Source: a virus (Duplodnaviria > Caudoviricetes). Taken from it: DNA of 64,000 bases. The stretch is taken from IMG/VR virus record IMGVR_UViG_3300025030_000042; one strand, 5' to 3'. Of the stretch, positions 8,548 to 56,324 are shown piece after piece. The notes under the pieces are model-generated. The model was not told the origin of the DNA. It worked only from the letters and a program-made list of their open reading frames with translations, and did not search any database. The position numbers and the translations under genes were made by a program. Numbering within the stretch: position 1 is the stretch's first letter; each line of letters opens with the position of its first letter.

Positions 8548-8843
8548 TTCTCATCCTTCTTTAAATAATCAACACAAACATCTCTCAATCTTTTAACTTC
8601 TTTTGGAGACAACAGAAATTCATCCCAGTGACCATATTTACTAGTCTTTCCAAAAATATATTTTATTCCCGCCCATAACCTCTTGAAAAATGTTTTTTCT
8701 CTTAAAGAAACAATAACATACATATAATCATCATTTTCATTGTGATCATTAAAATATGATATACGAAAAGTGTGATCGAAATCCGAACAATCACAAGTAA
8801 AATACTCCATTTTCATCATTTCATCTGTAAACGACATTGGCAT
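8544..8843 (-). CDS. Hypothetical phage protein
   Basis: Coupled ORF; YFTCDCSDFDH motif. Confidence 0.6.
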   Translation of the reverse strand: MPMSFTDEMMKMEYFTCDCSDFDHTFRISYFNDHNENDDYMYVIVSLREKTFFKRLWAGIKYIFGKTSKYGHWDEFLLSPKEVKRLRDVCVDYLKKDEK

Positions 8844-9039
8844 ATTCCAAAAACTCCCGTGAAAAAAAATAATTTCTCCAATATGGCGTTGAATAAAAAT
8901 TAGGTACTTTAATCCAAAAAATTTTATATCTTTTTATTCTATCTAACTTACGTATTTTATATATTACTCCCAAAGAAAAATTAGTTTTATTATCACCCCT
9001 ATATGTTACCAAATCACCAATGAAAAACTCTTCACACAT
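8821..9039 (-). CDS. KOW/SH3-like microprotein (KVGDL family)
   Basis: FFIGDLVTY...LGVIYKI. Confidence 0.65.
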   Translation of the reverse strand: MCEEFFIGDLVTYRGDNKTNFSLGVIYKIRKLDRIKRYKIFWIKVPNFYSTPYWRNYFFSREFLEYANVVYR

Positions 9040-9697
9040 ATTTATTCTTTCTCAAAAATCTTGCTGGATTTCCTACCCATATCTCTCCGTCTGGAATATC
9101 TTTTAAAGCTACAGAACCGGCGCCAACTATAGAATCCGCTCCAATATTTATATTTTGTCTTACCGTCGCATTTGCCCCAATCCAAGTATGCTTACCTACT
9201 TTTACATTTCCGCACAAAACCGCTCGTGGACCAATCTCCACACCATCTTCCAAAATACAATTGTGTTCCACAAGACATCCGGTATTCAAAATATTCCAAT
9301 CGCCAACTTTCGCTTGTTCGTTAACAATAACTCCCGGATGTATTTGTGTTCCTTTTCCGAGGAGTGAAAAAACAATAGCAGATTTGTGTTGAACTGTCAA
9401 TGGAGAAATATTATATTTTTGTTCAAAAAGTTCTGAAAGTTCTATTCGTCTTTTGGCGTTTGGATTTCCTATGGTAACAACAAAACCGCCCAACATAATA
9501 AAGACTTTTCTTTTTTTTCTATCCCATTCTTCTATTGTTTTATAAAAATCACAAGGAAACTTTGGTTTATTTCCATATTCATCAATAATCTGAAATGATG
9601 GATTTCCATATTCTTCTTCATCATTAACTATAATAGAATGAATAACGGTCGCTTGTCCCGTTCCGCCAAATAATAATATACTATATGGTCTACTCAT
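9032..9697 (-). CDS. NeuD/PglD-like sugar O/N-acetyltransferase
   Basis: TIGNPNAKRR, hexapeptide repeats, LNTGCLVEHNC, WVGNPAR. Confidence 0.9.
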   Translation of the reverse strand: MSRPYSILLFGGTGQATVIHSIIVNDEEEYGNPSFQIIDEYGNKPKFPCDFYKTIEEWDRKKRKVFIMLGGFVVTIGNPNAKRRIELSELFEQKYNISPLTVQHKSAIVFSLLGKGTQIHPGVIVNEQAKVGDWNILNTGCLVEHNCILEDGVEIGPRAVLCGNVKVGKHTWIGANATVRQNINIGADSIVGAGSVALKDIPDGEIWVGNPARFLRKNKYV

Positions 9698-10445
9698 TTA
9701 CTTCCTCTTCTATTTTGATGCTTACTTGATATTTTTTGCCATCCTTATAAAAAAAAGATTTATTTCCAGGAACAGTCCTGGCTCTCATAATATTTATTAA
9801 ATCCACCGCCTTATATTCTTTATCAAGTTTTATTTCAGAATGTTGATCGAGTTCTTTCGCATAATGAAAAGTTCCATGTGAAGTATCTACTAGAGTTAGT
9901 GTATATTTTCCTTCCAATATATTTTTATATTGCCGGCAAAATAAATCTATCATTGTTTCAGCGCATTTATTATAAAGTTGTTCTCCATTTGTTGTTATAT
10001 CTTTTTGAATTTTCTGCTGAAATAATATTTGTCCACGATCGATCTTATCGTCAATAAAATGAATAGTGACACCAGAAGGAGAATCTTCAACTATATCCCA
10101 AAACCAATAATTACGCCCGCGAGAATATGGAATATATGAAGGATGTAGATTTATAACCCCTATTTTCATATATTCTATTACTCGTTGTTTTAAAATTGTC
10201 GGATACCATAAAAGAAAAAGTATATCAATATTTAATGATTTTAAGTATAAAACAAACTCTTTCCCGTTTATATCAATACCGCAAAAATATTCAATATTAG
10301 AATAATAGCAAAAATCTTTTATTTTATCTCTATATCCTTCATCCTTTTCATTTCCAATAACAAAAGATATTTTTCGTTCTTCCTGTCCCATAAATCTTAA
10401 AAGTTCATACCCAACATAATTGGAAGCACAAACGCCAATGTTCAT
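9690..10445 (-). CDS. NDP-amino-sugar N-formyltransferase
   Basis: INLHPSYIPYSRG, GVTIHFIDDKIDRG, NIMRART. Confidence 0.88.
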   Translation of the reverse strand: MNIGVCASNYVGYELLRFMGQEERKISFVIGNEKDEGYRDKIKDFCYYSNIEYFCGIDINGKEFVLYLKSLNIDILFLLWYPTILKQRVIEYMKIGVINLHPSYIPYSRGRNYWFWDIVEDSPSGVTIHFIDDKIDRGQILFQQKIQKDITTNGEQLYNKCAETMIDLFCRQYKNILEGKYTLTLVDTSHGTFHYAKELDQHSEIKLDKEYKAVDLINIMRARTVPGNKSFFYKDGKKYQVSIKIEEEVNE

Positions 10446-11122
10446 TTATTTTCCTTTTCAAAAACTACATCGCACGAATTTCTTATTCTATATTCTTCCG
10501 GAAAGTTATTTTGATCATATGTAAAATATCTTATACTATCACTAAAAGAAGTCGGCATATATTCATTATTTCTCAAAAAACTATATATATCGCCAAGTCT
10601 TATAAAAAGATAAGGAATCTGTGTATCATCTTTCCAAGTTTGAAGTGTCAAATATGTTTCTTTTATGCTTCCAGCGGCAAAATCTTGAAATATCATTTTT
10701 TCTGGATTACATAAATCTATTACTTTTTGAAGTGCTACTTGATAGTTTTCAGAATATTGAAGCGCCGATTTCACAAAGAACTTATTTATTTTTATTTTTG
10801 GAATATCCGAATAAAACTCAACAACACCACTATCTTTTAAAAGTTCTTTTCCTCTTTCACATATTTTTTGTGTTTCAACTACAATATACTTTTTAACTTT
10901 TTTGTTTATTGTAAAATAACTTAATGCTAACGACCCGCCAAAATCCATAACGACATCATTATCTTCAATATTATTATTTAAAAAAGCATTTATATTCTTA
11001 TTATGTTTCAAAAACTTTGTCGTTTCCATTTCAACCCACTCGTTTGTTTCAAGAGTAGATTTTCTCGAATCTTTGATTTCATCTAAACTTTTATATATTC
11101 CATTCCAAATATATGTTGTCAT
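10442..11122 (-). CDS. TIGR04325-like SAM methyltransferase
   Basis: VMDFGGSLALSY, IVVET, SALQY. Confidence 0.75.
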   Translation of the reverse strand: MTTYIWNGIYKSLDEIKDSRKSTLETNEWVEMETTKFLKHNKNINAFLNNNIEDNDVVMDFGGSLALSYFTINKKVKKYIVVETQKICERGKELLKDSGVVEFYSDIPKIKINKFFVKSALQYSENYQVALQKVIDLCNPEKMIFQDFAAGSIKETYLTLQTWKDDTQIPYLFIRLGDIYSFLRNNEYMPTSFSDSIRYFTYDQNNFPEEYRIRNSCDVVFEKENK

Positions 11123-11337
11123 TGAATAATGTCCAAGTTACAAGTCAATGTATATTCTTTATATGAAGTCCCCATCCAATAAACCAATACGGGTTTCCAA
11201 GCATTATCCCCACATTTAAGAACGACACCATATGTTTTATTATATTTATCTTTAACCAGAGATCCCTGTTTAATATCTATATAATCACATTCAAAATCTT
11301 TATATTGAACTATTGGATTTATAGATTTAATAATCAT
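11119..11337 (-). CDS. KOW/SH3-like microprotein (divergent)
   Basis: IKQGSLVKDKYNKTYGVVLK...VLVYW. Confidence 0.55.
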   Translation of the reverse strand: MIIKSINPIVQYKDFECDYIDIKQGSLVKDKYNKTYGVVLKCGDNAWKPVLVYWMGTSYKEYTLTCNLDIIQ

Positions 11338-12276
11338 TTTATTCCGTAAACAGTTTTATTGTTTCGTTAATCTTCCCACTTTACCACAACATTATATCCA
11401 TTTTGACGATACACTTCTTCTTTTTCTAAAGTTTCTTGATAAACATCTTTATTTAATTTTCCAATTACAGGATGAATTTCTTCTAAATTTAAAAAATTTG
11501 GATGAGCATGCCAAAATTTTCCATGAAATAAAAAAACTGTATTAGCGATTAAAGAAAAACCATCGGCACATAATCTTTTATATTTTCCTTTTTCGAGTTT
11601 TAAATGTTTTTCTCTTTCTAAATCAGAAAATTAATTTCTATTTTATCCAGCCACTCTTGTGATGGTTTTGAAATATGAGCAGAACTACACCTTCGACAAC
11701 CATATCTTATTGTTTTTGATAGATGTGAGTTTGGAGTTATCCAAAATTCTCCGTGTCTCAAACACATAAGACAAACTTTAGTATGATTATTAACATATTT
11801 AACTTTAGAATATTCAAACATATTTCCATATTTATTAATTGATTTTTCTATAAATTCCTCCTTATTGGAAACTTTTATTTTCGATAAATATTCATAAGCA
11901 CATTTTTTACAACCTTTTCCATTTAAATGATCATATGGAAGTTGTTCAAAATATTCATGTTTTTACATCTAATCAACACTTTACAATGTGCAGTTTTATA
12001 ATCAACTAACGAATAATCATATCGATCGCCATGAATATTATAGGATTCTAAAATAAATTCATCTCTAGTTTTTTTATCTTTATCTTGCGCGCATTTTTTA
12101 CAACCATTTCCATATAAATGAGCAGACGCTCGTTGAAAAAATACTCCATGTATTTTACAAATTATATTGATTTTACTATCAGTGTTTATATATACACTTT
12201 CAGAATAATCATATTTATCACCATAAATATTTTTTGCTTCTTCAATAAATTGTTGAATTGTTTTCTTTTTTACCAT
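11338..12276 (-). pseudogene. Frameshifted homing endonuclease (repeated YGDKYDYSxVxY...ICKxHG Zn modules + Vsr/PD-(D/E)xK-like C-terminus)
   Basis: Three ORF pieces join if one base is added in an A5 run (~11960) and a T4 run (~11627); tail reads CADGFSL..TVFLFHGKFWHAHP...GYNVVVKWED. Confidence 0.8.
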
Positions 12277-13169: not shown

Positions 13170-13172
13170 ATA

Positions 13173-13541: not shown

Positions 13542-13542
13542 C

Positions 13543-13710
13543 TTAACATACCTTTGTTAGATTATCTACGTGGCATATCCAAAATTTGGATATACTTAAA
13601 AAGTATACATCATAAAGATCACTAAAAATATCTTTTTTGAGAATAATCCCAACACCCGATAATCGTACGCCGTCAACCAATTCATAATAAACTAAATCAC
13701 CCGTTTTCAT
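13543..13710 (-). CDS. KOW/SH3-like microprotein (below ORF-track cutoff)
   Basis: Manual translation MKTGDLVYYELVDGVRLSGVGIILKKDIFSDLYDVYFLSISKFWICHVDNLTKVC; similar to the adjacent ORF. Confidence 0.7.
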   Translation of the reverse strand: MKTGDLVYYELVDGVRLSGVGIILKKDIFSDLYDVYFLSISKFWICHVDNLTKVC

Positions 13711-15177: not shown

Positions 15178-16115
15178 ATATCCAATACATCTTGTGTCGC
15201 TTTTACGATTTCTTTATGTTGTGGTTCTGGGAGTGGCATTAAAGGCATTCGTTCATTTCTACTCATTAATCCACAATATTCTAAAGAAGAACGCAAAGAA
15301 ATATGCCAACCGTATTTCTTGGCAATCTTCAAATACGGCTGTTCTATATTTTCAACTATCTGTTTACATTTTTCTTTATTGCCTTCCTGATATGATTTGT
15401 AAAATGTAGTAGATATTTCTGGAGCAAATGATCCAACGCCTATTAAATATGATTGAGCCCCATATGGTTCACTGTTCATATATTGTTCTTTTGCGCGACC
15501 TGAAACAAGTATAGCAAGTTCGTCTTTCAAAGATTTAATAATCTCTTTACTATATTCATAATCTTTTGAATCTTCTTTTAACGCTATTACATTATCTATT
15601 TGAGCAAGTTTTTTAAGTAAATCAATGGGATATGGAATACGAGCACTGGAATGAGTATTTAAATGATCTGCGTGTATCAAAATACCGATATTAGAAGCAC
15701 TTTTAGCAACAAGTTCATAATGTTTCAAAACTTGTTCTTCAAAGTGATATCGCTCACTAAAAATAAGTGAAATGGCATCGGCACCATATTCACTCGCATT
15801 TTGAGCAAAATCACGACTTACTGTCGTTCTACAAGCAAGAGGATCCGCTACTATGACAACGCAATCATTATATTTCTTTTTAATATATTTAGACACATAA
15901 AGATTTAATGTATCTATTTCTTCGTTTTCCAACAAAGTAAATCTTGAAGAATAACACATTGCGTAAAAAACGCGAGCGCCATCTAAATAAAGAAAATCAA
16001 TATAATCAAACAAAACATCGTAATCTATTTCTTCATCATCTTTAAATGGCGGTATTATAGGAAATATCGGTCCTTTGATTTTATTTTTTAGTTCTTCAAA
16101 CTTCGTTGGTTTCAT
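15159..16115 (-). CDS. DHDPS/NanA-family class I aldolase
   Basis: PIIPPFK, IALKEDSK Schiff-base Lys, TIM-barrel length. Confidence 0.8.
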   Translation of the reverse strand: MKPTKFEELKNKIKGPIFPIIPPFKDDEEIDYDVLFDYIDFLYLDGARVFYAMCYSSRFTLLENEEIDTLNLYVSKYIKKKYNDCVVIVADPLACRTTVSRDFAQNASEYGADAISLIFSERYHFEEQVLKHYELVAKSASNIGILIHADHLNTHSSARIPYPIDLLKKLAQIDNVIALKEDSKDYEYSKEIIKSLKDELAILVSGRAKEQYMNSEPYGAQSYLIGVGSFAPEISTTFYKSYQEGNKEKCKQIVENIEQPYLKIAKKYGWHISLRSSLEYCGLMSRNERMPLMPLPEPQHKEIVKATQDVLDMWETLK

Positions 16116-16764
16116 TATATTCCTCTTCGGGTAAATGTTTCCAAGATTCTCGATTTATTATTTTACCTATCAAACATTTTGTAATTTTATGTTTATATTC
16201 TTCATATAAATCGCTATATGAATAGCCATTTTTAAATTTTCTTCTAATATCTAAAACTTCTTCGGGGGTTAATTTTGAATGAAATCCGCTTTCTCTTATT
16301 TTACCCCACATAGGATTATTTTTTCCAGAAACATCATGATGATTTTGACTTATTTTTTCTTTTGTTTCTTCGGTGTGCTTTTTGCCATAAAATGGATTTT
16401 TTTCTCCCTTGAGTGATTCGCTTATTTTCTTTTTTGTTTCTTCGCTAATAATTTTATGACCATTTATGATTCGCTCAATATTATATCCATATCTTTTATC
16501 CCAAGATTTTTTATCTTCTATCCAAAATTGTTCTGCTTCTGCTAAAAAATTTTCACAAACATATTCTATTATTTCAAATACAAAATTTTGTTTACCATAT
16601 TTATCCCAAGCACTTTGAAGATGACAAGAATTTCTTTTCCATTTAAAGTCTATTTTATGCCAAGTCCATCGCTTTCCAAAATTAACAGTGCTTCCAATAT
16701 AAATTTTTCCATTTATTAAATTTCTTATTTGATATATACCACTTTTTAGATTATGACCTATCAT
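16096..16764 (-). mobile_element. GIY-YIG homing endonuclease with NUMOD3
   Basis: SGIYQIRNLINGKIYIGS; GEKNPFYGKKHTEETKEKIS. Confidence 0.92.
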
Positions 16765-16770: not shown

Positions 16771-18654
16771 TTATAATATTCCTTTATATTTTTTTAAATA
16801 ATGTAATCCTTCAAATATTCCAACTCCAAAATTATTATGTTGTTGCCAAATTTCCGTAATCCAGGAAAAATCTTTATCTTTTAAAACTTCTAAAACTTTA
16901 TCAAAATCTATCGTTCCATCTCCAAATTTTAATCCTTCTTCGTTTATATTTTTTGCGTCACTTATATGTAAATGTTGAATAAACGGCTTAACTTTTTGGG
17001 TATATTCTATCAAATCTTCTTTTGCCCAGTTACAATAAAGAGCACTATGACAAACATCATAACACATTTTCAGATTCAAAGCAACACAAAAATCTATCAT
17101 ATGTTCTGCTTTTGTAAAGGCATATTGTGTCCAGTGTCCCGAAAAATACCATGGAAATTTTGGAAGCGATTCTGGCAAAATATTTATTTGTTCTGAAGAA
17201 CAAGACAGTCTCTTGAAATTTTTAATTGCCCTTTCCATCATATCATCTTCATATTTTTCTAATCCCTTTTCTAAACTCATTCCTCCCACATGAACAACCA
17301 CAGAAGGAATACCTTTAAATCTTTGTCCTATTTCTATTGTTTTGTCAATGGTCTTTTGTATTATTTCGACAGATTTATCAACCACATTTTTATCTAAAGA
17401 ACAAAAATCCACCAAAGTTCTATCTACAATTTCCGGAGCATGTATAATAAGTTTTGAGTTTTTATTACTACCTTTAAAATTTATATTTAAATCATTAGAA
17501 GAACAATGAAACTCTATAATTTTAGCATCAATTTGTTTATATTCCTCATAATCGTGAAAACGACATTTTATTCCATAATCCTTTTTAAAATTAAACTTTA
17601 TATTTTTCCAATCTGGAATATCATTACTAAAATCTTCTTTACAAATATATTGTTCTTTTTCTATGTCTCGTTTAATCTCTTTCCCAAAATATTCTTCAAT
17701 CTCATGAGGAAATATTCCTTTTCCCGGAGATTTCCATTCAATTAATTCTTTTATTAATATTGTGCCTTTTTTAATTTTTTTTATTGCCACCGCAGATTTG
17801 GCAAATACTTCTTTATTTAATTTTTCAGCTACATTTACTTTTTTATTACAGTGAAATGATTTTTCAAAATTACGAATATTAGATACCATTTCTTTAAATT
17901 CATTAGGTAACAATGATGAAGAGTGATCTGGTCCTGATTGATTTTTGTTTAAAGTAATATGTTTTTCTATTATTCTTGCTCCTAAAGCAATTGCTCCTAT
18001 TGGAAGAAAAATCCCCGGATCGTGAGATGAGAGTCCTACAACATTTTGTCCCTCTTTTACTAACTCTTTTAAAAATTCAATAAATTTTATTCCAATATCA
18101 GCATAATCGCAAGGATATGTGCTATTAGTTAATAATAAAGCAAAATTTATAATATTATGATCATAATAATAATCAACACATTTTATAATTTCTTTTTGAT
18201 TCCATGTGCCCGTGGAAATAACCAGAGGCAGTCCATACAAGTTACATTTTTTAATCAACTCGTAGTTCACCATATCGGCAGACGAAATCTTAAATGCCTT
18301 CACGCCAAGATTATAACAAAACTCTGCCGACTTTAAATCAAACGGGGTTATGATAAGATCAATATTTAAATCATTACACTTCTTTTTAATAACCGAATAA
18401 TCTTCTTCAGAAAGTTCAGTTTCTTTTAGAATAGGAATAATATAGTCAAAATTCCACTCGGCGGCGTTGCTATCTTCCAATATTTTTTTTGTATAAATCT
18501 CTTCAAGGTTTCTTTTTTGAAATTTGACGGCATTAACACCAGCATTTTTTGATATTTCAATAAGGTCCAATGCTGTTCCAAGATCTCCATTATGATTTAT
18601 TCCAATCTCGGAAATGATGTAAACCTCTTTTCTTATTTGATCAAAAAAACTCAT
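16771..18654 (-). CDS. neuB: Nonulosonate synthase (NeuB) + SAF + C-terminal xylose-isomerase/AP-endonuclease-like TIM barrel
   Basis: ISEIGINHNGD, AVKFQKR, GLSSHD, IEKHIT, GPDHSSSL; C-term DVCH, HLHISDA, TEIWQQH. Confidence 0.9.
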   Translation of the reverse strand: MSFFDQIRKEVYIISEIGINHNGDLGTALDLIEISKNAGVNAVKFQKRNLEEIYTKKILEDSNAAEWNFDYIIPILKETELSEEDYSVIKKKCNDLNIDLIITPFDLKSAEFCYNLGVKAFKISSADMVNYELIKKCNLYGLPLVISTGTWNQKEIIKCVDYYYDHNIINFALLLTNSTYPCDYADIGIKFIEFLKELVKEGQNVVGLSSHDPGIFLPIGAIALGARIIEKHITLNKNQSGPDHSSSLLPNEFKEMVSNIRNFEKSFHCNKKVNVAEKLNKEVFAKSAVAIKKIKKGTILIKELIEWKSPGKGIFPHEIEEYFGKEIKRDIEKEQYICKEDFSNDIPDWKNIKFNFKKDYGIKCRFHDYEEYKQIDAKIIEFHCSSNDLNINFKGSNKNSKLIIHAPEIVDRTLVDFCSLDKNVVDKSVEIIQKTIDKTIEIGQRFKGIPSVVVHVGGMSLEKGLEKYEDDMMERAIKNFKRLSCSSEQINILPESLPKFPWYFSGHWTQYAFTKAEHMIDFCVALNLKMCYDVCHSALYCNWAKEDLIEYTQKVKPFIQHLHISDAKNINEEGLKFGDGTIDFDKVLEVLKDKDFSWITEIWQQHNNFGVGIFEGLHYLKKYKGIL

Positions 18655-18833
18655 TAAACTACCTTTTTATAGCCTTTCTTATGTCCTAAATATAGTTTTG
18701 GAATCATAGAAACGGTATTTGAATCAAGAGAATATATTTTTATCATATTCATAGTTAAATCTAAAATCACTCTATAAAATCTTTTATCACCTATCTCAAG
18801 ATAAACTAAATCCCCAACTTTAAAATCATTCAT
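18654..18833 (-). CDS. KOW/SH3-like microprotein (below cutoff)
   Basis: Manual translation MNDFKVGDLVYLEIGDKRFYRVILDL...KGYKKVV; TAATG coupling to neuB. Confidence 0.7.
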   Translation of the reverse strand: MNDFKVGDLVYLEIGDKRFYRVILDLTMNMIKIYSLDSNTVSMIPKLYLGHKKGYKKVV

Positions 18834-19785: not shown

Positions 19786-19963
19786 ATTTTTTTATATAAA
19801 AGTTCAATATGATTATCAAAATATGTTAAAAATTTCTTATATTTAAAACAATATAACCTATATGTTTGCTTGCCGTTTTTAAAAAAGAAGAGATTACAAA
19901 ATAATCTGGTTCATTTATTTTAACTTTATAAATGTAAACTATAAGATCTCCGGAAGTAATCAT
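19786..19963 (-). CDS. Possible KOW-like microprotein (3' frame uncertain)
   Basis: Begins MITSGDLIVYIY, ATGA-coupled to GT29 stop; fills the gap. Confidence 0.4.
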
Positions 19964-20583
19964 TTTAAAATGATCAGCCCTTCTTCATCAAGTTCAATAA
20001 GAAGATTTTTTTCTTCGTTAACACCGTGATATCCACTCGGTTGTGGGCGAGAACCGTAATAATGTGTTCTAACATATTCCGCATCTTCTTTACCACTATC
20101 AAACCCATAACAAACCGGTCGGACACCAGAAAAAATACAAGTTAAAATAAAACACACACCAACAGTCGGATTTTTTAAAAGATTAAAATATTTTTTATAA
20201 AGTTCCACCGTTCGGTAATCATAAAGAAATACTTGATTACTGGAATGAGTATTTTTATCTTTGTTCCAAAAAGGAACTAAATCTTCGGCAATATATAAGA
20301 TATTCGTGTTTCGCAAATCGCGAATAAAGTATTGCGGTTGATTTGACCATTCATCTTCGCGAAGTTTATTATTATTGAAGACGTGATTATTCACACAGCG
20401 AACAGTAGTTTTACTACCCACCCAACGCTCAAATCCCTCTGTTGGCGCACGATTAAATCGCATTACATCTTCAAAAGCGTCTATTTCTTCTCCATATTCG
20501 GTCTCAACAAGTTTTCCGCTACTGCCAACCACAGCGACACTCTCCGATATTTGAAGTTCTGGATTTACATATAAAAGTTTCAT
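19960..20583 (-). CDS. GT29 sialyltransferase-like protein
   Basis: Sialylmotif L VAVVGSSG..YGEEIDAFEDVMRFNRAPTEGFERWVGSKTT; motif S PTVG...YGF; motif III HYY; VS HxxxxE. Confidence 0.85.
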   Translation of the reverse strand: MKLLYVNPELQISESVAVVGSSGKLVETEYGEEIDAFEDVMRFNRAPTEGFERWVGSKTTVRCVNNHVFNNNKLREDEWSNQPQYFIRDLRNTNILYIAEDLVPFWNKDKNTHSSNQVFLYDYRTVELYKKYFNLLKNPTVGVCFILTCIFSGVRPVCYGFDSGKEDAEYVRTHYYGSRPQPSGYHGVNEEKNLLIELDEEGLIILK

Positions 20584-27478: not shown

Positions 27479-27774
27479 TAAAAAGTAAAATGTCCGCCTT
27501 TATCTTCAGTGCTTTCTTCAAAAGCAACATCATCGTCATTGCCTATCTCAACCGGAATCTTAAAAGTTTGAATCAAATCCCAAGTACACTTTTCACACAA
27601 ATCAAAAAAATAATCTACATCATCTTCAAATAGTTCTGATTCATAACATCCAGTAATAAACCCACACAATCCAGTATGATTATGTTCATCTGGTTTACAA
27701 GTTTGTCCACATTTATTACAAATAGCGTCAGTTTCTTCTTTATAAACCACTTGTTTTTCTTTATATACTCTCAT
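27478..27774 (-). CDS. Hypothetical Zn-binding phage protein
   Basis: ICNKCG and DLCEKC. Confidence 0.6.
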   Translation of the reverse strand: MRVYKEKQVVYKEETDAICNKCGQTCKPDEHNHTGLCGFITGCYESELFEDDVDYFFDLCEKCTWDLIQTFKIPVEIGNDDDVAFEESTEDKGGHFTF

Positions 27775-27962
27775 TTTATTTTCTCCAGCGAATAGTCGCT
27801 ATGTCTCTGATATTCAGACCATATATCATTATTATGTTTAACCCAATAAACTCTATTGAAATCCCCTATATATTTTTTCACAATAATGCCTAAAGAAGCC
27901 GCATCGGACCAATGTCTCACCAAATCCCCTACTTTAAACTTTTTGTTGTTTTGTTTGATCAT
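27771..27962 (-). CDS. KOW/SH3-like microprotein
   Basis: KKFKVGDLVRH...LGIIVKK...VYW. Confidence 0.7.
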   Translation of the reverse strand: MIKQNNKKFKVGDLVRHWSDAASLGIIVKKYIGDFNRVYWVKHNNDIWSEYQRHSDYSLEKIK

Positions 27963-27986: not shown

Positions 27987-28178
27987 TCATAAATATAACT
28001 TTTTGTTACAAAATAACCAACCCAAGCAGTTTCGGCGTATTTGGGATATATAATATGCCAAAATATTGTCTTCAAATTTCTCTATCTCATATATAGCTCC
28101 AATATAATGTTTATAGAGAGTGTTGATTTTTGAATATGAATATTCAATCAAATCGCCCACTTTAAACTTATTATCCAT
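27987..28178 (-). CDS. KOW/SH3-like microprotein
   Basis: NKFKVGDLIEY. Confidence 0.62.
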   Translation of the reverse strand: MDNKFKVGDLIEYSYSKINTLYKHYIGAIYEIEKFEDNILAYYISQIRRNCLGWLFCNKKLYL

Positions 28179-36366: not shown

Positions 36367-37068
36367 ATGATATATAAAAAACACTTTTTCTTAAATAGAA
36401 AAAAGCGCAAATATTCTTCTTGTTCAAAGTGCGATGGTCAAGAAGATGGTGACAATCTTGACCCAAGAATAGTAAGAAAAGTTACTCACCCACTATATCC
36501 ATTTTTTGATGATGAGGGTGATGAACAAGAATCAAGCGGCATTGAGGTAAACGATAATCATATATTATTTTATACTAATGTCAATAAATCTAGCGCATTG
36601 ATGTTAAACAAATCGATCCAGCAACTCAATAAAGAACTTTTAATTAATTCCATCATTCTCAATAATCCTGTAGCGCATATTTATCTTCATATCAATAGTG
36701 ATGGTGGAAATCTTTTTGATGGAATGAGTTGTGTTGATTATATTCGTAATTCAAAACTACAAATCCACAGTATTGTCGATGGTTCGGCAGCGTCAGCGGC
36801 AACAATGATGTCAGTCGTTGCTAAACACAGAGCAATCAATCGTCACGGATTTATGCTTATTCATCAGTTATCTGGTGGTATTATGGGATCGTTTGAAGAG
36901 TTAAAGGACGATTGGGAAAATGCCAAAATCTTAATGGATACAATGAGAGAAATATATAAAGAACATACGAAGATTCCAAAAAAGAAATTAGACGAGATTC
37001 TTCAAAGGGACATTTGGTTTGACGCGAAACAATGTTTAGCTTATGGATTAGTGGACGAAATATTATGA
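36367..37068 (+). CDS. clpP: ClpP-like protease subunit
   Basis: INSDGG, AASAAT, MLIHQ, DIWFDAKQCLAYGLVDEI. Confidence 0.9.
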   Translation: MIYKKHFFLNRKKRKYSSCSKCDGQEDGDNLDPRIVRKVTHPLYPFFDDEGDEQESSGIEVNDNHILFYTNVNKSSALMLNKSIQQLNKELLINSIILNNPVAHIYLHINSDGGNLFDGMSCVDYIRNSKLQIHSIVDGSAASAATMMSVVAKHRAINRHGFMLIHQLSGGIMGSFEELKDDWENAKILMDTMREIYKEHTKIPKKKLDEILQRDIWFDAKQCLAYGLVDEIL

Positions 37069-37283
37069 TGATCGATCCATTCTTTACCAAATTTAGAGTT
37101 GGTCAACTCATCGATGCTTCAAAAGTTTCTGGCATAAAAGAAGATTATGGGATTATTTTTAATCTTACCGAAGAAAATATTAAAATGTATTTTGCTAAAA
37201 ATTGTGAAAATCATCGTTTAGAAATTTGGAACAAAGAAGGAGAACAGCATCTTATAAAAGATCTTAAAATTATTTTTAAATAA
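37065..37283 (+). CDS. KOW/SH3-like microprotein
   Basis: KFRVGQLIDAS...DYGIIF; ATGA-coupled to clpP. Confidence 0.68.
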   Translation: MMIDPFFTKFRVGQLIDASKVSGIKEDYGIIFNLTEENIKMYFAKNCENHRLEIWNKEGEQHLIKDLKIIFK

Positions 37284-37285: not shown

Positions 37286-37511
37286 ATGAAAAATCCTTTC
37301 AAAAATATAAAAGTCGGTCAGATTGTTGACGCATCATCATATAGTCTTATAGAAAATGACTATGGATGGGATCGTATATGATATTTCTGTCAATAGTATT
37401 AAACTTTATTTCTTAAAAAGCAGCAAGTTAGGAACCGGCAATGCACAACTAGAGGATTGGGATAGAGCCACCTTTTCGCATATTTTAAAAGATATCAAAA
37501 TCGTTAAATAG
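37286..37511 (+). pseudogene. KOW-like paralog broken by a 4-bp duplication
   Basis: IKVGQIVDAS...DY then ATGGATGG at 37362-37369; removing 4 nt gives GIVYDISVNSIKLYF...ILKDIKIVK, matching the upstream paralog. Confidence 0.75.
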
Positions 37512-43629: not shown

Positions 43630-43827
43630 ATGCGTTACAAAGTGGCAGATTGCGTATCGAGATTTGGAAATACAGAAAATATCGGCATCATTATTGACAT
43701 CGCTAGCGATCAACAGTATTATAAGGTCGCTTGGTTTACGAGTGATGGTCTTTCGGAGTTTGCTGAATATTGTGCCGATTATCAACTATGTGATACTCAA
43801 ACGAATGAAGAAATTTGGTTCGAGTAA
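43630..43827 (+). CDS. KOW/SH3-like microprotein (divergent)
   Basis: MRYKVADCVS...IGIIID...YKVAW. Confidence 0.6.
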   Translation: MRYKVADCVSRFGNTENIGIIIDIASDQQYYKVAWFTSDGLSEFAEYCADYQLCDTQTNEEIWFE

Positions 43828-48309: not shown

Positions 48310-48984
48310 TTATAAAGAATTTTTAATCTGTGAAATATGTTCGAGTGAAATATGACCGTGATCAAATTCCCAGTGATGATTTTTACAAAGTCCGATAAGA
48401 TTAGAAATATCATTTATTTCTGATATTAAAGTTTTTGGAGGAAATGAAGATATTGATTTTATATGACACGCATCAATGTGTAAAGTATAATCACATAAAG
48501 CACATTTTAACAAAAGATTATGTTTTTGGGCTATTTTCCGAGCGTGATATCTGACTCTAGAAAAGTGATTACAAGAAAACGATTTTGTTATTTTAATAGT
48601 TTCCAGCGTTAATGAGTTAGTAGGAATATGTTCTTTATCATAACAAGTTTTACAAAGATTAGTTTTTTTATCATTTAGTGGAATAGAACAAATATTACAA
48701 AAGTTAGTAAATGTTTTCACTCTTTTTGGATATTTTGTATTATTAAATATTGCAGAACATTTTTGAGAACAAAAGTTATTTGGAAACTTTTTTATTTCAC
48801 TACGAAGTTTTAAAAATGATTTATAACAGTTTAAACATTCTACTAAAATCTTACTTGAAGCATTTTCTTTTCTATAGAGTTTTGCACAATCGTTGGAACA
48901 AAAATGTTTTTTACTTCTCTCTATTCGACATTTTTGTCTTTGAAAGGATTTAGAACATCTATGACATTTTATTTGAATAAGCAT
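48310..48984 (-). mobile_element. HNH endonuclease with Cys-rich N-terminal repeats, opposite to neighbours
   Basis: CxxCxKSF/FCSxxC repeats; DACHIK...NLIGLCKNHHWEFD; GGAG RBS before MLIQ. Confidence 0.85.
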
Positions 48985-49053
48985 ACGTATTCTCCATTTA
49001 TTATAAGTAGTATTCTCATTGGGATTTGAAACAAATATAGAAGGTAGTATTAA

Positions 49054-49125
49054 GGGGCTCGGGCGGTTCAGTAATCGCGTCGGTCTTATAAACCGAGAAA
49101 CCGTGAGCGACACACGGGAGCCCTA
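49054..49125 (+). tRNA. Non-canonical tRNA-Ile(UAU), no encoded CCA
   Basis: All four stems pair: GGGGCTC/GAGCCCT, GCGG/TCGC, TCGGT/ACCGA with loop CTTATAA, CCGTG/CACGG; loops lack conserved residues. Confidence 0.7.
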
Positions 49126-50995: not shown

Positions 50996-51062
50996 AAGAA
51001 AATATTATGCGAGATCAAAAACTAATCAAAAAGATTAAAGACTTTTCAAAGGAATAGAATAA

Positions 51063-51254: not shown

Positions 51255-51255
51255 A

Positions 51256-51993
51256 ATGCGAATCTTAAAAACTCCATTTACATTTGATATCAAAAAACAT
51301 TTTTCTGAGGAACAACAAAAAGTATTTAACATTTTAACTTCCGTTCCTGGATGTTATATTGCTGGCGGAGCTGCTTTGGCAATGTATGATAATAATCCAG
51401 TGATATTGAAAGATTTTGATGTTTATTGTAATACGAAAACCATTCGTAGAATCGTTTATAATAAAATGTATGATGTATTTGGTTCGCCGTTAAACTATCC
51501 AACTTATCCGGGAAATGGAAGTTATCTTTATAATTATTTAACTTTTTCTACACTTACACAACTTATGTTAAATAAAAGTAAAAGTTTGAAAAGCCTGTTT
51601 CGTTCATTTGATTTTACAGTTTGTTGTTTTGCTACAGATGGTAAATATTACTACTTTACTCCGCAAGCAAAACGCGATCTCATCAAAAGAGAAATCGTTT
51701 GTAATGAAATTACCAGTAATGAATTAAAAACAATATCTCGCTTAAAGCGTTATAAATCAAAAGGATTTCGTTTAAATAATGAAAAGTTCTGGAATACTTT
51801 TAACAAAAAGAAAAGAACTTTTTCTTCTGGAGATATGATTAAATCTCTATCTTTATATCACGACAAACAAAGAATATTGGTTTTAGATAAAGACAAAAAA
51901 GTTTATAAATGTTTTAATATTTATAACAAAAAGATTTATTTTGTTATATCCGATGTTCTTGAATCAAACTACAAAATCGTTAAGACAAAATGA
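51256..51993 (+). CDS. tRNA nucleotidyltransferase/poly(A) polymerase-like nucleotidyltransferase
   Basis: YIAGGA, DFDVY (DxD), FDFTVC. Confidence 0.7.
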   Translation: MRILKTPFTFDIKKHFSEEQQKVFNILTSVPGCYIAGGAALAMYDNNPVILKDFDVYCNTKTIRRIVYNKMYDVFGSPLNYPTYPGNGSYLYNYLTFSTLTQLMLNKSKSLKSLFRSFDFTVCCFATDGKYYYFTPQAKRDLIKREIVCNEITSNELKTISRLKRYKSKGFRLNNEKFWNTFNKKKRTFSSGDMIKSLSLYHDKQRILVLDKDKKVYKCFNIYNKKIYFVISDVLESNYKIVKTK

Positions 51994-52181
51994 AATACAA
52001 AATCGGCGATTTAATAGAAAATATTATTTGGGGAAGTATCGGATTTATTTATGATATAGAAAATAATAGATATTATCGTATGATTTGGTTTTATGATATT
52101 GATAATAAAAAAGGATATCATTGTGAAAGTTGTTCAATATCTTTAATAGATACCGATAGAACAGTATTATTGGAGAAATAA
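51990..52181 (+). CDS. KOW/SH3-like microprotein
   Basis: MKYKIGDLIE...IGFIY...MIW. Confidence 0.7.
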   Translation: MKYKIGDLIENIIWGSIGFIYDIENNRYYRMIWFYDIDNKKGYHCESCSISLIDTDRTVLLEK

Positions 52182-52186
52182 ATAAA

Positions 52187-52591: not shown

Positions 52592-52874
52592 AGAAGATAA
52601 CGACCGATATCAAAATCAACCTTGGTATATCAAGTTATGGAGACGAAGATATTATCTTTTGATTCCATATTTTACTATTGTTTGTTATCTATATAATATT
52701 TTCATGGTGTCTAAAAACGAAGAACGATTATCTCTTAATAAATGCTGGAAAATCAATATTGGGTTAGCACAAATGAAAATGAAATGGTATTATGATTGGA
52801 ATGAAATGAAAGAGAAATTAGATAAAATAGATAAAATAAAAGATGGACAAAATAGGTTAAATAAAAATGTATAA
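52560..52874 (+). CDS. Hypothetical protein
   Basis: QPWYIKLWRRRYYL. Confidence 0.55.
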   Translation: MTTKLMKKMNKEDNDRYQNQPWYIKLWRRRYYLLIPYFTIVCYLYNIFMVSKNEERLSLNKCWKINIGLAQMKMKWYYDWNEMKEKLDKIDKIKDGQNRLNKNV

Positions 52875-54147
52875 TGCTATTATTGGAAAAATCAAGATCT
52901 ATCCTCACCCTAACGCAGATAGACTAAAAATGGGCGTTATTTGTAATACAACGGTTGTTGTTGGGTTAAATATTCAAGAAAATGATTTAATGATGTTATT
53001 TCCCAGTGATGGACAACTCTCTGAAACTTTTGCCATCTCCAACAATTTAATCAGTTATTCCGATCCGCAAACTGGTGAAAAAAAAGGTGGTTATTTCGCA
53101 AAAAATCGTCGCGTCCGCGCTCAAAAGCTACGAGGCGTTAGTAGTGATGGATTCGCCTGTGAACTTTCACTTTTAAAAAATGCTGGAGTATCTCAAAAAA
53201 CTATTGATTCTTTAAAAAAAGGGGATCAATTTAACGAGTTGGATGATATTTCTATATGTAATAAATATATTACGCCCGCAACAAAACAAGCGTTGGCCCA
53301 TAAGGCAAATCAAGTTAAAAAAACCAATAAAAGATTTCCGGAACACTATGAGACAAAACAGTTACGTTATGAAATCGATAAGATACCTAACTATTCAATA
53401 TTATACATAAATCTCAAAGTCCACGGAACTTCTGCCAGATATAGTTTTGTTCATGAAGAAATCGCCGTTAAACCTCCTTGGTTTAAACGCATCTTTGGCG
53501 CCAAACCAAAAACAAAACTTGAATATCGTCATCAAGTTGGCACTCGTCGAGTCATTCTTGATAACGAAAATGTTATGGATTTTCACGGAAATGTTCAATA
53601 TCGTTACGATTTTATGAAAGATATTTTTCATCTTCTAAAAAAAGGCGAACTTATCTATGGTGAAATCGCTGGATATCAATCTGAAAATGTTTCTATTATG
53701 CCATCGGTTTCAACTTCAACAATAAAAGATAAATCGTTTTCAAAAAAGTATGGTCCTACTATAACCTACAAATACGGCTGTCCTAACGGAACTCATAAGT
53801 TCTTTGTTTATAGAATAGCAATGATAAATGAAGATGGTTACATTATAGATTTACCTTGGTTACAAACAAAGAAAAGAGCAATGGAGTTAGGACTTCAGTG
53901 TGTTCCAGAGTTTGAAGGTCCATTTGTTTACGACGGCAACAAAGAAGAACTTTTAAATAAAGTATTACAATATGTAGACGGTCCGGATCCATTAGATGAA
54001 ACTCATATTAGAGAGGGTGTTGTGGTTCGCATTGAAAATGAAAACGGTGTATCGTTCTTAAAAGAAAAATCTTTTAACTTTAAAGTTTTGGAAGGAATTG
54101 CGAAAGATAATGCCGATTATATTGATTTAGAGGAACAGGAAGGGTAA
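52867..54147 (+). CDS. ATP-dependent RNA ligase (DRB0094-like, N-terminal OB fold)
   Basis: HPNADRL, KLRGVSSDG, KVHGTS, YGEIAG, REGVVVR, KEKSFNF. Confidence 0.88.
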   Translation: MYNAIIGKIKIYPHPNADRLKMGVICNTTVVVGLNIQENDLMMLFPSDGQLSETFAISNNLISYSDPQTGEKKGGYFAKNRRVRAQKLRGVSSDGFACELSLLKNAGVSQKTIDSLKKGDQFNELDDISICNKYITPATKQALAHKANQVKKTNKRFPEHYETKQLRYEIDKIPNYSILYINLKVHGTSARYSFVHEEIAVKPPWFKRIFGAKPKTKLEYRHQVGTRRVILDNENVMDFHGNVQYRYDFMKDIFHLLKKGELIYGEIAGYQSENVSIMPSVSTSTIKDKSFSKKYGPTITYKYGCPNGTHKFFVYRIAMINEDGYIIDLPWLQTKKRAMELGLQCVPEFEGPFVYDGNKEELLNKVLQYVDGPDPLDETHIREGVVVRIENENGVSFLKEKSFNFKVLEGIAKDNADYIDLEEQEG

Positions 54148-54157
54148 ATTTTGCACA

Positions 54158-54439
54158 ATGAAAAATGAATCTTATTTAGAGAAGATTGATAAGATTGATT
54201 TTACAATTTTAAAGGTTGGAGATTTACTATTTGATTATTATGATTGCGTAGCGGATGGTCGTTGGTTATTTGTTGTAAATAAAACCGATACACATATAAC
54301 TTTTTTGTTTAACTTCAAACAAATATTTAAACCTTTTTTATTAAAATATTGGGATAATAAAGCAAATAAAAAAATAAACAATGGATATAGTAACAAATAT
54401 CGCAAATATTTTATCGTTACCAAATCGGTAACGAAATAA
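54158..54439 (+). CDS. KOW/SH3-like microprotein
   Basis: ILKVGDLLFD. Confidence 0.62.
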   Translation: MKNESYLEKIDKIDFTILKVGDLLFDYYDCVADGRWLFVVNKTDTHITFLFNFKQIFKPFLLKYWDNKANKKINNGYSNKYRKYFIVTKSVTK

Positions 54440-54444
54440 CTTTT

Positions 54445-54678
54445 ATGAAACCGAAAAGAGGTTCTGATATATCGATACACTACATCGATCTTAAAATAGG
54501 AGATCTAATTTTATTCAAAAATGAACCAGAATATGTAGTATTAAAGAAAAACGAAAAAACAATAATAATGTTTGATATCAAAAGAACAAAAATATTTGAA
54601 TATAATTTATGCTATAAAAATGTTTTGGGCGCGTTACTTTATTGTGGATTATCAAAAAGATATATGAAAATATTATAA
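54445..54678 (+). CDS. KOW/SH3-like microprotein
   Basis: DLKIGDLILF. Confidence 0.62.
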   Translation: MKPKRGSDISIHYIDLKIGDLILFKNEPEYVVLKKNEKTIIMFDIKRTKIFEYNLCYKNVLGALLYCGLSKRYMKIL

Positions 54679-54679
54679 T

Positions 54680-54838
54680 ATGTCTTCAATAGAAAATAAA
54701 ATATATATTAAAGATTTGAATGTTGGCGATTTGATATTGGATCCGATCGATGGAGCGATATTTGTGTTTGAAAAAAACGAAAGAAAAACTTTCGGTATAT
54801 TCTATAGAACAAAAACAATTTTTTTAAATATTATTTGA
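54680..54838 (+). CDS. KOW/SH3-like microprotein (below cutoff)
   Basis: Manual translation IKDLNVGDLILDPIDG. Confidence 0.55.
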   Translation: MSSIENKIYIKDLNVGDLILDPIDGAIFVFEKNERKTFGIFYRTKTIFLNII

Positions 54839-54915
54839 AAGTAGTTTATTATACCCGGGTAAAGTGTTATTCGGCCCTCACAACAACACAGAGAACTCAT
54901 AATCTAGGATATATA

Positions 54916-55083
54916 ATGAAACTTTTTGACAGAGATCTTTTTCAAACGAAGCAAACGATGAACCGTCTTGAGCGGATTGTTTTACTTATTTTTATTATGT
55001 CGATGACAAGCATTATTGGTGTTGGGGTATGGTTCGTGTGGAATCATTATTATTCCCCGATAATATTATGTTCGGCATTATAA
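54916..55083 (+). CDS. Small membrane protein
   Basis: One TM helix. Confidence 0.5.
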   Translation: MKLFDRDLFQTKQTMNRLERIVLLIFIMSMTSIIGVGVWFVWNHYYSPIILCSAL

Positions 55084-55124
55084 TAAAATCATTTACTTCT
55101 TTTGTGTCCGACAACCTCATTTTA

Positions 55125-55270
55125 TGTGTCTGACAGTTGGCCATGGCAGCCAGTATATCACACGCGCCTTTTTGGCGCCGGCGTCCTTCGGCGTCTCCAC
55201 GGGCTGCACAGACGCCTTCCGGACGACGCTGGAGAACATTCATCAAGTCAGCTCTCCATCGCCGTCATAC
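55125..55270. other. Short GC-rich island with a long hairpin
   Basis: GGCGTC..GACGCC stem nested in CCGGCGTCC..GGACGACGCTGG within AT-rich DNA. Confidence 0.6.
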
Positions 55271-55361
55271 AATAAAATATCTCTCTCGATAACGCCAATA
55301 TCGATCAATAACATTGCGAATGTTATTGAAAAGAAAAAGCGTTATTATTATTAAAAAGATC

Positions 55362-55390
55362 TTGACAAACACTCAACAATATTATATACT
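55362..55390 (+). promoter_or_regulatory. sigma70-type promoter
   Basis: TTGACA-N17-TATACT. Confidence 0.78.
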
Positions 55391-55396
55391 TGTGTT

Positions 55397-55642
55397 ATGA
55401 ATGAATGCGAATATATCGAACGTATTATGTCGATGGTAAAAGTTGGCGACCTTGCAAGACACAAGCGTTGTTCAAATATCGTAATGGTTTATAAAATAAA
55501 AATGTTTAAACATTGGTGTGAATGTTTCGTTATTCCAAAAATGGTCAACACCGACGCGCCTCTTTATAAATATTCATCCTTTGTTGACGACTTTCATCGA
55601 ATACCTCATTATAAAACCATTTCAAAAGGCAATCAAAAATGA
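55397..55642 (+). CDS. KOW/SH3-like microprotein
   Basis: VKVGDLARHKRCSNIVMV. Confidence 0.68.
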   Translation: MNECEYIERIMSMVKVGDLARHKRCSNIVMVYKIKMFKHWCECFVIPKMVNTDAPLYKYSSFVDDFHRIPHYKTISKGNQK

Positions 55643-55866
55643 ACATCGGCGATCTTCTGAAAATAAAAGAAGAAGACTATACTGTCGCCAAAACAACATA
55701 TTCGGTTATATATGCGAAAGATGGAAACCTTTTTTGGATATATCCACCGGTATATGATCGATATAATCAAGTATGGCGTGGTTTTTCTATTAAACGTATG
55801 GATCCAAAATATCGCGATCACTTTTGGTGGTCCATTCGAAAAGTTGCCGGACACAAAGAAAAATAA
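55639..55866 (+). CDS. KOW/SH3-like microprotein
   Basis: MNIGDLLKI. Confidence 0.62.
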   Translation: MNIGDLLKIKEEDYTVAKTTYSVIYAKDGNLFWIYPPVYDRYNQVWRGFSIKRMDPKYRDHFWWSIRKVAGHKEK

Positions 55867-55867
55867 A

Positions 55868-56122
55868 ATGAATCATTCAATATATAAATTAAAACTTCAT
55901 CATGATGATATTAATGTCGGCGATCTTGTTATTAGTTATGATGAAAATGAAAAAAATATTCGCATCATCATAAAAAAGAATAAAAAACAATTAAAATATT
56001 ATAGAATGCGCTCGACAAGTTTATTTTCCAAAGTTTATATGGAAACGATTCCTTTCGCACGCATCGGCCCAAACGATGTGTTTTATCGTGTATATCATAT
56101 ACCAGCGGGCAACATAAAATAA
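55868..56122 (+). CDS. KOW/SH3-like microprotein
   Basis: DINVGDLVIS. Confidence 0.6.
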   Translation: MNHSIYKLKLHHDDINVGDLVISYDENEKNIRIIIKKNKKQLKYYRMRSTSLFSKVYMETIPFARIGPNDVFYRVYHIPAGNIK

Positions 56123-56123
56123 A

Positions 56124-56324
56124 ATGATTTCAAAACCAACAAAGCCAAAAGCCGGCGATCTCATAAAACATATATCTTGTTCCAATCATGTTATGGTTCA
56201 TGAGATAGATGAAAAAGGTTTTGTTTATGTATTTCCAGATTTAAAGTCAACTTTTTGGACAAATCATTCGTTCAATTCATTTTATGATTATCGTAATTGT
56301 AAAATAGTAGTTCGGACAACATAA
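56124..56324 (+). CDS. KOW/SH3-like microprotein
   Basis: KAGDLIKHISCSNHVMV (close to 55397). Confidence 0.68.
   Translation: MISKPTKPKAGDLIKHISCSNHVMVHEIDEKGFVYVFPDLKSTFWTNHSFNSFYDYRNCKIVVRTT

Follow-up and report, generated by a model that had tools for sequence, protein, structure and literature searches.

A multigene family of small stand-alone proteins, predicted to be SH3-like barrels, in a clade of uncultured T4-like phages

What are the many short open reading frames (ORFs) with a common K[VI]GDL[VI] motif that lie between the genes of the virus record IMGVR_UViG_3300025030_000042? The stretch analysed here (64 000 nucleotides, nt; hereafter the window) holds about 30 of them, which an initial annotation, made from the sequence alone, had described as paralogous microproteins and tentatively placed in a greatly expanded and diversifying family of small β-barrels. 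By count from the ORF list, they make up about 30 of some 95 genes between 8.8 and 56.3 kb, or roughly one third. The reading to which the follow-up analysis leads us, with a probability of roughly 0.6, is that of an unnamed multigene family of translated, stand-alone SH3-like barrels of 50–95 amino acids (aa), growing by tandem duplication and serving as a diversified binding scaffold.

The motif is far too frequent to be a matter of composition. Its strict form, [KRN][VIT]GD[LIVMF][VIL], occurs 19 times in the six-frame translation of the window, against a mean of 0.27 (maximum 2) in 100 block shuffles, which is about 70 times the shuffled frequency; the shorter GDL[VIL] occurs 28 times, against 2.6. 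A profile iterated within the window converged at 28 ORFs, two or three of which are off-frame artefacts. The family alignment was then searched against 1.84 billion cluster representatives and gave 109 matches, 18 of them the window's own proteins. Most external matches are stand-alone proteins of 45–100 aa with the consensus M..KFKVGDLV..(8-12)..IGIII..(6-10)..YKVYWF; the long matches aligned in several stretches proved to be repetitive or low-complexity proteins and were discarded. To avoid circularity, we built a hidden Markov model (HMM) from external sequences only (73 non-window proteins, each less than 60% identical to any window ORF). This external-only HMM detects 27 of the 465 window ORFs at E<0.01, 25 of them at E<=1.1e-5, and yields no match in an off-frame or non-coding frame. 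The count of about 30 copies is thereby borne out as 27 firm members, to which three marginal members and one frameshifted copy are added. The three short ORFs singled out by the initial annotation (at 13543, 18654 and 54680) were all found and encode 55, 59 and 52 aa. The marginal members are 54445–54678 and 54680–54838, which are recognized by the motif and the window-derived profile only, and 19826–19963, which has only SGDLIV. According to the external-only HMM, the window has no family copies between 37.5 and 43.6 kb or beyond 56.3 kb, as the initial annotation had noted for 37.5–43.4 kb and for a GC-rich array; a further copy was confirmed about 4.2 kb past the window end. Taking a multigene family to be at least ten copies in tandem clusters that undergo birth and death, the 27 firm copies in 64 kb constitute one.

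We may wonder whether the likeness goes any further than the motif itself. With the motif columns removed from the HMM, the 14 best matches (E<0.01) are all members, as are 20 of the best 21, so that about two thirds of the copies resemble each other past the first six residues. In some ten copies, sequence comparison detects nothing in common apart from the motif. Together with the short length of the ORFs, these ten copies, which have little in common beyond six residues, are what speaks for chance ORFs of AT-rich sequence or mis-annotated spacers. This explanation is already contradicted by the excess of the motif over shuffles, by the recovery of 27 copies with a profile from other metagenomes that makes no off-frame match, and by synonymous variation at conserved residues, dN/dS values (ratios of nonsynonymous to synonymous substitution rates, ω) below 1 and a confident fold; we consider it next to untenable.

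The codons show at which level the motif is conserved. All four glycine codons are used for its Gly (GGT 7, GGA 8, GGC 9 and GGG 5) and all six leucine codons for its Leu, and conservation is therefore at the amino-acid level and not at the DNA level; selection acts on the protein. Orthologues were compared with a diverged relative represented by short contigs of one sequencing run, with 84–88% DNA identity. Their dN/dS is 0.24 for the copy at 27771, 0.13 for that at 43630 and 0.68 for that at 56124, in the company of flanking genes at 0.12–0.39. The dN/dS and synteny comparison proposed with the initial annotation thus gives ω of 0.13–0.68 between orthologues, along with turnover of copies in relatives (see below). 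Four near-identical contigs contain no polymorphism from which pN/pS could be calculated, and contigs of four runs are the same clone, with no informative variants.

The fold was addressed with an AlphaFold2 model of a representative, the copy at 27771–27962, computed with the family alignment. The model is a five-strand SH3-like barrel (predicted local distance difference test, pLDDT, 84.7; predicted template-modelling score, pTM, 0.70) with strands at residues 14–17, 24–30, 35–41, 47–53 and 57–59, and the conserved Y, Y and W are positioned on strand 3. In a VIA structural search, 196 Protein Data Bank (PDB) chains reached Z>=5 and all of the top rows were SH3-like barrels; the nearest, at Z 7–8, are the Hpy99I N-domain, a PWWP domain, HspQ, NusG/Spt5 KOW, NdhS and Tudor domains. 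Foldseek agrees with an SH3-like barrel, with weak E-values. The cluster neighbours in AFDB are DUF2158, KOW, DUF2187 and DUF4926, and the ESM Atlas's own model leads to the same neighbours. By ESM Atlas sequence features, 96 of the 100 nearest clusters are unnamed and the top clusters with recorded taxa are viral, while the matches in BFVD are uncharacterised small phage proteins. The Atlas model of the marginal member 54445–54678 (pLDDT 0.61) also has SH3-like neighbours, at template-modelling (TM) scores of 0.5–0.6.

The initial annotation had regarded the N-terminal signature as typical of KOW/SH3-barrel, Tudor and PWWP folds. At the level of the fold this holds (Z 7–8), but not for the KOW family as such. 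None of 29 members matches Pfam KOW (PF00467) even at E<=10, hhalign of the family with the Escherichia coli NusG KOW gives a probability of 12.7% over 28 columns, and a single external member reaches 17.8 bits with KOWx_SPT5, under the cut-off of 20. The only match in scans of Pfam, PHROGs and NCBIfam is a weak one to phrog_9237, for which no function is assigned, and a PDB sequence search with the family profile returned nothing significant; PDB matches to alpha-hemolysin and to designed proteins are chance matches to KVGDLV. Without a Pfam, NCBIfam or PDB sequence-family match, KOW membership is unsupported. Judging from the model, the family appears to have the KOW/Tudor type of fold and yet to fall outside the KOW/Tudor families.

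Comparison with named families makes the distinction clearer. With the KOW domains of NusG/Spt5 and of ribosomal uL24 and eL27, the phage proteins would share a five-strand SH3-like barrel of about 55 residues (VIA Z 7.4–7.7 to NusG KOW and 7.0–7.4 to Spt5 KOW), and both have a hydrophobic-x-x-G-D/E-x-V stretch that runs up to strand 1, with a Gly-containing hairpin after it; the phage copies differ in being stand-alone, with no NGN or ribosomal context, and in numbering tens. The best combined sequence and fold lead is HspQ/YccV (PDB entry 5ycq; VIA Z 7.8, 25% identity; Foldseek TM 0.66), whose KFGIGQQVRH..GYLGVVVDID is aligned by hhalign with KFKVGDLVRH..SLGIIVK. All of the profile matches to it are nevertheless below threshold: the best PF08755 score is 17.4 bits against a cut-off of 22.8, from external members P0063 and P0108 only, the best TIGR02097 match has E=0.065, and hhalign with E. 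coli HspQ (probability 60.9%) covers the first 26 columns, that is the first hairpin only. HspQ is, moreover, a 105-aa single-copy bacterial protein. Small stand-alone SH3-like proteins such as DUF2158/YodC, DUF2187, DUF4926 and SPbeta YorP are of the same size and fold and are often encoded by phages or prophages. The three DUF families are the top structural neighbours in AFDB and the Atlas, and YorP (2heq) has Z 6.5; the likeness is structural only, since the DUF2158, DUF2187 and DUF4926 profiles match none of the 29 members at E<=10, and none of these proteins was seen here as a multi-copy array. The Tudor/PWWP `royal family' and the UvrD/PcrA C-terminal domain have the barrel topology in common with the phage proteins (Z 6–7.8), with no Pfam match.

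These neighbours raise the question of nucleic-acid binding, in which the barrels would be small regulators of transcription or RNA, or would bind DNA as chromatin proteins do. The top folds include the Hpy99I N-domain, an ssDNA-bound PWWP domain, ribosomal KOW proteins and the UvrD Tudor domain; the weak link to HspQ/YccV is to a binder of hemimethylated DNA (hhalign 61% over 26 columns, and sub-threshold in Pfam); and 20 of 29 window copies have an isoelectric point (pI) above 8.5. A role of this kind has been proposed for the zinc-ribbon expansion of Bacillus phage G (PMC7824862). Yet the high pI may reflect the Lys-rich proteome of a 30% GC genome, the motif Lys is the sole conserved basic surface residue and the HspQ link is limited to the first hairpin. 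The charge of the family is in fact mixed: the median pI in the window is 9.3, with the copy at 43630 at 4.1, and external copies are bimodal, with 37 basic and 25 acidic (25 of 73 at pI < 6). We therefore regard a common nucleic-acid-binding role as possible but doubtful.

Returning to the family as a growing set, its members in the window are highly diverged. Only nine pairs match at BLAST E<1e-3, and four of these pairs stand in tandem (Fisher p=8e-4); copies in tandem are more closely related to one another than to any other copy. In the youngest pair, 21665/21847, dS is 0.24 and dN is 0.32 (ω ~1.3), the strand codons are identical and the changes are concentrated between the strand blocks; synonymous sites are saturated in the older tandem pairs. 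The description as a greatly expanded and diversifying family of small β-barrels thus finds backing in the modelled barrel with its Z of 7–8, in the kinship of tandem neighbours and in the ω of this pair. Gain or loss of a copy could be caught in relative L008, which has no copy equivalent to 27987–28178: the 5' end of that copy is joined to the body of 27771–27962, and the join falls inside the shared KFKVGD codons, AAGTTTAAAGTGGGCGATTT. A breakpoint inside the shared 5' motif points to unequal recombination between neighbouring copies, with loss or gain possible either way. In relative L018, the three copies that precede 56124 in the window have no counterpart: the gene upstream of its orthologue is unrelated to them. 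Finally, the copy at 37286–37511 loses its reading frame by a +1 shift at a run of G (TGGG), beside the intact copy 37065–37283, and the same sequence is present in several metagenomes; it is either a pseudogene or a slippage site.

Is this expansion particular to one phage? A degenerate DNA pattern for KFKVGDLV marked at least 120 IMG/VR loci, and 73 of the 120 loci among the matches listed hold family ORFs, with up to 18 in 14 kb, 11 in 7.5 kb and 10 in 5.8 kb. Searches of whole records at E<=1e-3 gave 12, 11, 15 and 10 matches in records of 203, 190, 186 and 113 kb, respectively. The records of 185–203 kb are complete and that of 113 kb is 61% complete. In the three large records most of the family matches are grouped in one region, and all three encode a Gp23-type major capsid protein. 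A homologue of the window's VWA protein, 54–55% identical, is encoded in three of the four records (203, 186 and 113 kb), which makes these phages relatives of the window's phage; in the 203- and 186-kb records (G001 and G003) it lies at most about 2 kb downstream of the main family cluster. Another relative, of 191 kb, has at least eight copies in 20 kb. When two members were compared by tblastn with 50 697 records of isolated phages, nothing matched, and a profile search of P-SSM2, HTVC008M, Vibrio phage phiKT1024 and Microcystis phage Mel-JY01 was equally negative. One weak profile match was found in a 484-kb uncultured phage. The family is a distinguishing feature of one clade of T4-like phages, uncultured and of about 185–210 kb. 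The arrays across relatives indicate that the expansion is a trait of the clade, and what is particular to the window's phage is that the copies are interleaved with enzyme genes.

Among the external proteins, P0014, P0021, P0036, P0083 and P0091 are natural fusions with two to five tandem family domains per polypeptide. A candidate DUF3310-type motif was seen by eye at the end of P0091.

Two known situations come close to this one. The T4-type hyperplastic regions are clusters of small, non-essential, fast-turnover ORFs. The present arrays resemble them in that the relatives have a Gp23-type capsid protein and in that small genes with quick turnover cluster in accessory regions, and differ in that a single homologous family fills these regions here. 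No description of the family itself was found in the literature, and the nearest published precedent that we found is the expansion of about 35 zinc-ribbon copies in Bacillus phage G (PMC7824862). Both cases have tens of tiny-domain paralogues in one large phage genome; the phage G proteins have another fold, and the present expansion is clade-wide and forms overlapping head-to-tail arrays.

The junctions within these arrays are characteristic. In relatives, 20 of 51 junctions are 14-nt overlaps, the commonest class, and 15 of 51 are 4-nt overlaps. The 14-nt overlap has the sequence [A/G]TG-AAA-GTN-GGT-GA, i.e. [A/G]TGAAAGTNGGTGA (L056:2424-9193, L047:153-1807 and other IMG/VR loci), and is read in two frames, as M-K-V-G-D at the start of the downstream copy and as x-E-S-R-stop at the end of the upstream copy; where the downstream copy starts with MQVGD, the upstream copy ends in A-S-R-stop. 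Both conserved ends are therefore one DNA piece read in two frames: the recurrent `LEVISESR' C-termini exist because they are the alternate-frame reading of the N-terminal motif of the next copy. The window has one 14-nt junction, between the copies at 13697 and 13543 (13697–13710), where the upstream copy ends in NENG-stop, an out-of-frame reading of the MKTGD of the next copy. In the window as a whole, the junctions between copies and neighbours are as the initial annotation described them, mostly overlaps of 1, 4, 8 or 14 nt and otherwise gaps of a few bases.

Overlaps of 14 or 4 nt imply translational coupling. Since coupled translation would be roughly equimolar, neighbouring paralogues might be subunits of one machine, forming hetero-oligomers that might resemble Sm/Hfq rings or the R67 DHFR tetramer with its SH3-like subunits. 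The tandem fusions of two to five domains would suit such an arrangement, as would a weak likeness to R67 DHFR (Pfam E=0.17; VIA Z 6.2 with 26% identity; an Atlas viral DHFR_2 cluster at 0.89), but every R67 score is below significance. Copy number also varies widely among relatives, with losses of single copies, which a complex of fixed stoichiometry would not tolerate, and we consider this assembly very unlikely.

The arrays could alternatively matter as DNA. They would then be a recombination `landing pad' that shuffles accessory genes, or would spread selfishly, and the proteins would be of minor importance. In T4 hyperplastic regions, promoter/stem-loop cassettes have been proposed to capture and shuffle genes. 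The one deletion or duplication breakpoint seen lies exactly in the shared motif, the copies of relatives stand in contiguous arrays just upstream of the MoxR–VWA pair, and accessory genes of the window, including GIY-YIG and HNH endonuclease genes, lie between copies, all of which would fit. On the other hand, synonymous sites of the motif are randomised, so that the stretches of identical DNA shared by most copies are not long enough for homologous recombination to be efficient, the orthologous proteins are under purifying selection, and a single breakpoint is a single observation. No promoter/stem-loop cassettes flank the window copies, and neither flanking repeats nor a nuclease linked to individual copies occur in the window; nothing points to self-spreading. 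A role at the DNA level with the proteins as bystanders is thus improbable.

The individual copies follow, with E-values of the external-only HMM in parentheses. On the minus strand, the series opens with a 72-aa member with FIGDLV at 8821–9039 (1.7e-12), which overlaps its upstream gene by 8 nt, and another 72-aa member at 11119–11337 (1.9e-7), with KQGSLV at residue 23 and a one-residue variant, P0049, in another sample. The tandem pair joined by the 14-nt overlap consists of the 55-aa 13543–13710 (1.7e-8) and the 64-aa 13697–13891 (4.1e-11), which are 44% identical. The 59-aa member 18654–18833 (1.4e-7) sits between GDP-mannose dehydratase-like and NeuB-like genes with overlaps of 8 and 1 nt. 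The marginal 45-aa ORF 19826–19963 has its SGDLIV motif alone and is detected by no profile; the 88-aa 20584–20850 (KPGDLI; 1.1e-5), with the one-residue variant P0037, lies upstream of a GT29-like gene. A tandem quartet begins with the 65-aa 22221–22418 (4.7e-8) and continues with the 60-aa 22019–22201 (KTGDLV; 4.7e-8) and the 68-aa 21847–22053 (8.5e-8), the start of which was refined from a 97-aa ORF and the product of which is the called protein P0013; its last member is the 60-aa 21665–21847 (1.3e-6), 57% identical to 21847.

The following copies complete this strand: the 74-aa 23854–24078 (DIGDLV; 1.5e-7), the 68-aa 24694–24900 (3.7e-6), the 67-aa 25113–25316 (3.1e-9) and the 73-aa 26355–26576 (SVGDLV; 2.8e-7), followed by the modelled 63-aa representative 27771–27962 (1.2e-16), the 63-aa 27987–28178 missing in L008 (8.4e-9) and the 75-aa 31492–31719 (3.6e-11).

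The remaining copies are on the plus strand. The 72-aa 37065–37283 (RVGQLI; 1.4e-7; start as in the called gene P0028) is followed by the frameshifted 37286–37511, in whose translations an N-terminal part with IKVGQIV ends at a stop and the C-terminal part, matched by the window profile, continues in the +1 frame. Further along are the 65-aa acidic 43630–43827 (KVADCV; 2.8e-12), the 69-aa 49573–49782 (RVGSLI; 1.9e-8), the 65-aa 50556–50753 (7.6e-15), which carries the phrog_9237 match (E=2.7e-5), and the 63-aa 51990–52181 (1.8e-10), which has an ATGA overlap with its upstream gene. That gene, 51256–51993, whose stop codon is thus overlapped by a family copy, encodes a 245-aa protein with the precomputed Pfam label Gad2 (anti-Gabija), a label that was not reproduced on a Pfam re-scan. 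A trio comprises the divergent 93-aa 54158–54439 (3.6e-3) and the marginal 77-aa 54445–54678 (KIGDLI) and 52-aa 54680–54838 (NVGDLI). The final quartet consists of the 81-aa 55397–55642 (1.3e-8), the 75-aa 55639–55866 (NIGDLL; 3.3e-4), the 84-aa 55868–56122 (9.9e-9), refined from a 136-aa ORF and beginning 1 nt past the previous stop, and the 66-aa 56124–56324 (KAGDLI; 7.6e-7).

The window around these copies has a GC content of about 30%, no tRNA genes and tightly packed, co-directional genes. Its proteins are present on contigs of up to 211 467 bp, and these contigs are virtually identical across many groundwater and soil metagenomes; none of 20 external family matches that were checked lies on the 211-kb contig. 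Isolated phages are distant, with best protein identities of only 23–29%. No phage sequence matched a 12-kb part of the window by megablast, and close relatives were not found by a search with the VWA protein or an exact 30-mer search of IMG/VR. The genes include a nonulosonic-acid and deoxy-sugar cluster (DegT aminotransferases, a formyltransferase, NeuB, GDP-mannose dehydratase and glycosyltransferases), a PD-(D/E)XK nuclease, a MoxR-type AAA ATPase with a VWA/DUF2201 partner and an RNA ligase. A 207-aa ORF at 19960–20583 bears the precomputed Pfam label Glyco_transf_29 (sialyltransferase) and is in the same operon as a NeuB–SAF–TIM-barrel fusion protein (16771–18654), which suggests a phage-encoded nonulosonic-acid pathway with its own transferase. 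Genes of homing-endonuclease type occur within the accessory operons at 16096–16764, 48310–49113 and 11618–12276; this set comprises a GIY-YIG + NUMOD3 protein between NeuB-like and DHDPS-like genes, an opposite-strand HNH_2 protein and two DUF723 ORFs.

Beyond the last copy in the window, a GC-richer block contains 11 exact copies of GATCGTATAAC, all on the minus strand between 58277 and 63362 (chance expectation 3.2 allowing one mismatch). They adjoin a gene for a σ70 r2/r4-type sigma factor (57306–57821), and no GATCGTATAAC copy is near any family member. This promoter-rich block also has direct repeats, namely an 89-bp pair (58698–58785 and 58907–58994, 90% identity) and an exact 70-bp pair at 61966–62035 and from about 63978 onward, the second running off the window end. 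Strain variant L004 has a small indel near 62113–62123.

How would such a family work? Each protein would be a single five-strand SH3-like β-barrel in which (F)K-V-G-D-L-V leads into or starts strand 1, G-I-I-V lies in strand 2 and Y-x-V-Y-W in strand 3, with a terminal Y-x-K-V. These conserved residues are hydrophobic and positioned on strands, and would thus make up the core, leaving loops and tails free to vary. New copies would arise by tandem duplication, their number would shift by unequal recombination between the conserved 5' motifs of neighbours, and some would decay. They would usually stand in head-to-tail arrays and here also among glycan-synthesis, RNA-repair and accessory genes in long operons. 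The constant scaffold could present variable surfaces to different partners, most likely host or phage macromolecules, and so provide a repertoire of adaptors or inhibitors. This binding-scaffold role is our best guess from the conserved strands and variable loops, the mixed charge and the tandem fusions of two to five domains.

Several observations weigh against this reading. About ten copies have no sequence-detectable likeness outside the motif with the motif-less HMM, and the most divergent copy, 54158–54439, was modelled poorly (AlphaFold2 pLDDT 52.6). Clear purifying selection, and not an arms race, is seen in two of the three orthologue pairs, and the ω of about 1.3 in one 60-codon pair is statistically indistinguishable from neutrality. 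No family member lies in the early-like, promoter-rich module at 57–64 kb, which fits poorly with an immediate-early role in host takeover. The other fusion partners of distant IMG/VR matches (ThiF, MazG and Rpb6) are inconsistent, and no RNA or protein data turned up in a search of public runs.

A repertoire of binders might also be combined with a second level, at which the arrays, by virtue of their conserved 5' codons and their fixed junctions of 14 or 4 nt, would be a cassette platform that captures accessory genes (glycan enzymes, RNA ligase and endonucleases), keeps them coupled in translation and shuffles them. We think this double role improbable; if true, phages would have their own equivalent of integron-like gene capture, with coding repeats instead of att sites.

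The family recurs as dense arrays across several environmental metagenomes, and no Pfam, NCBIfam or named PHROG model covers it. With a name and a profile for it, a good part of the genes now called `hypothetical' in these T4-like phages would be annotated. Its conserved core and variable surface, its fast turnover and the 14-nt overlap, where the first codons of a copy fix how the copy before it ends, make it well suited to studies of the diversity of small phage proteins and of mutual reading-frame constraint. If its members act on host systems as inhibitors or adaptors, many new small binders would be available in this family.

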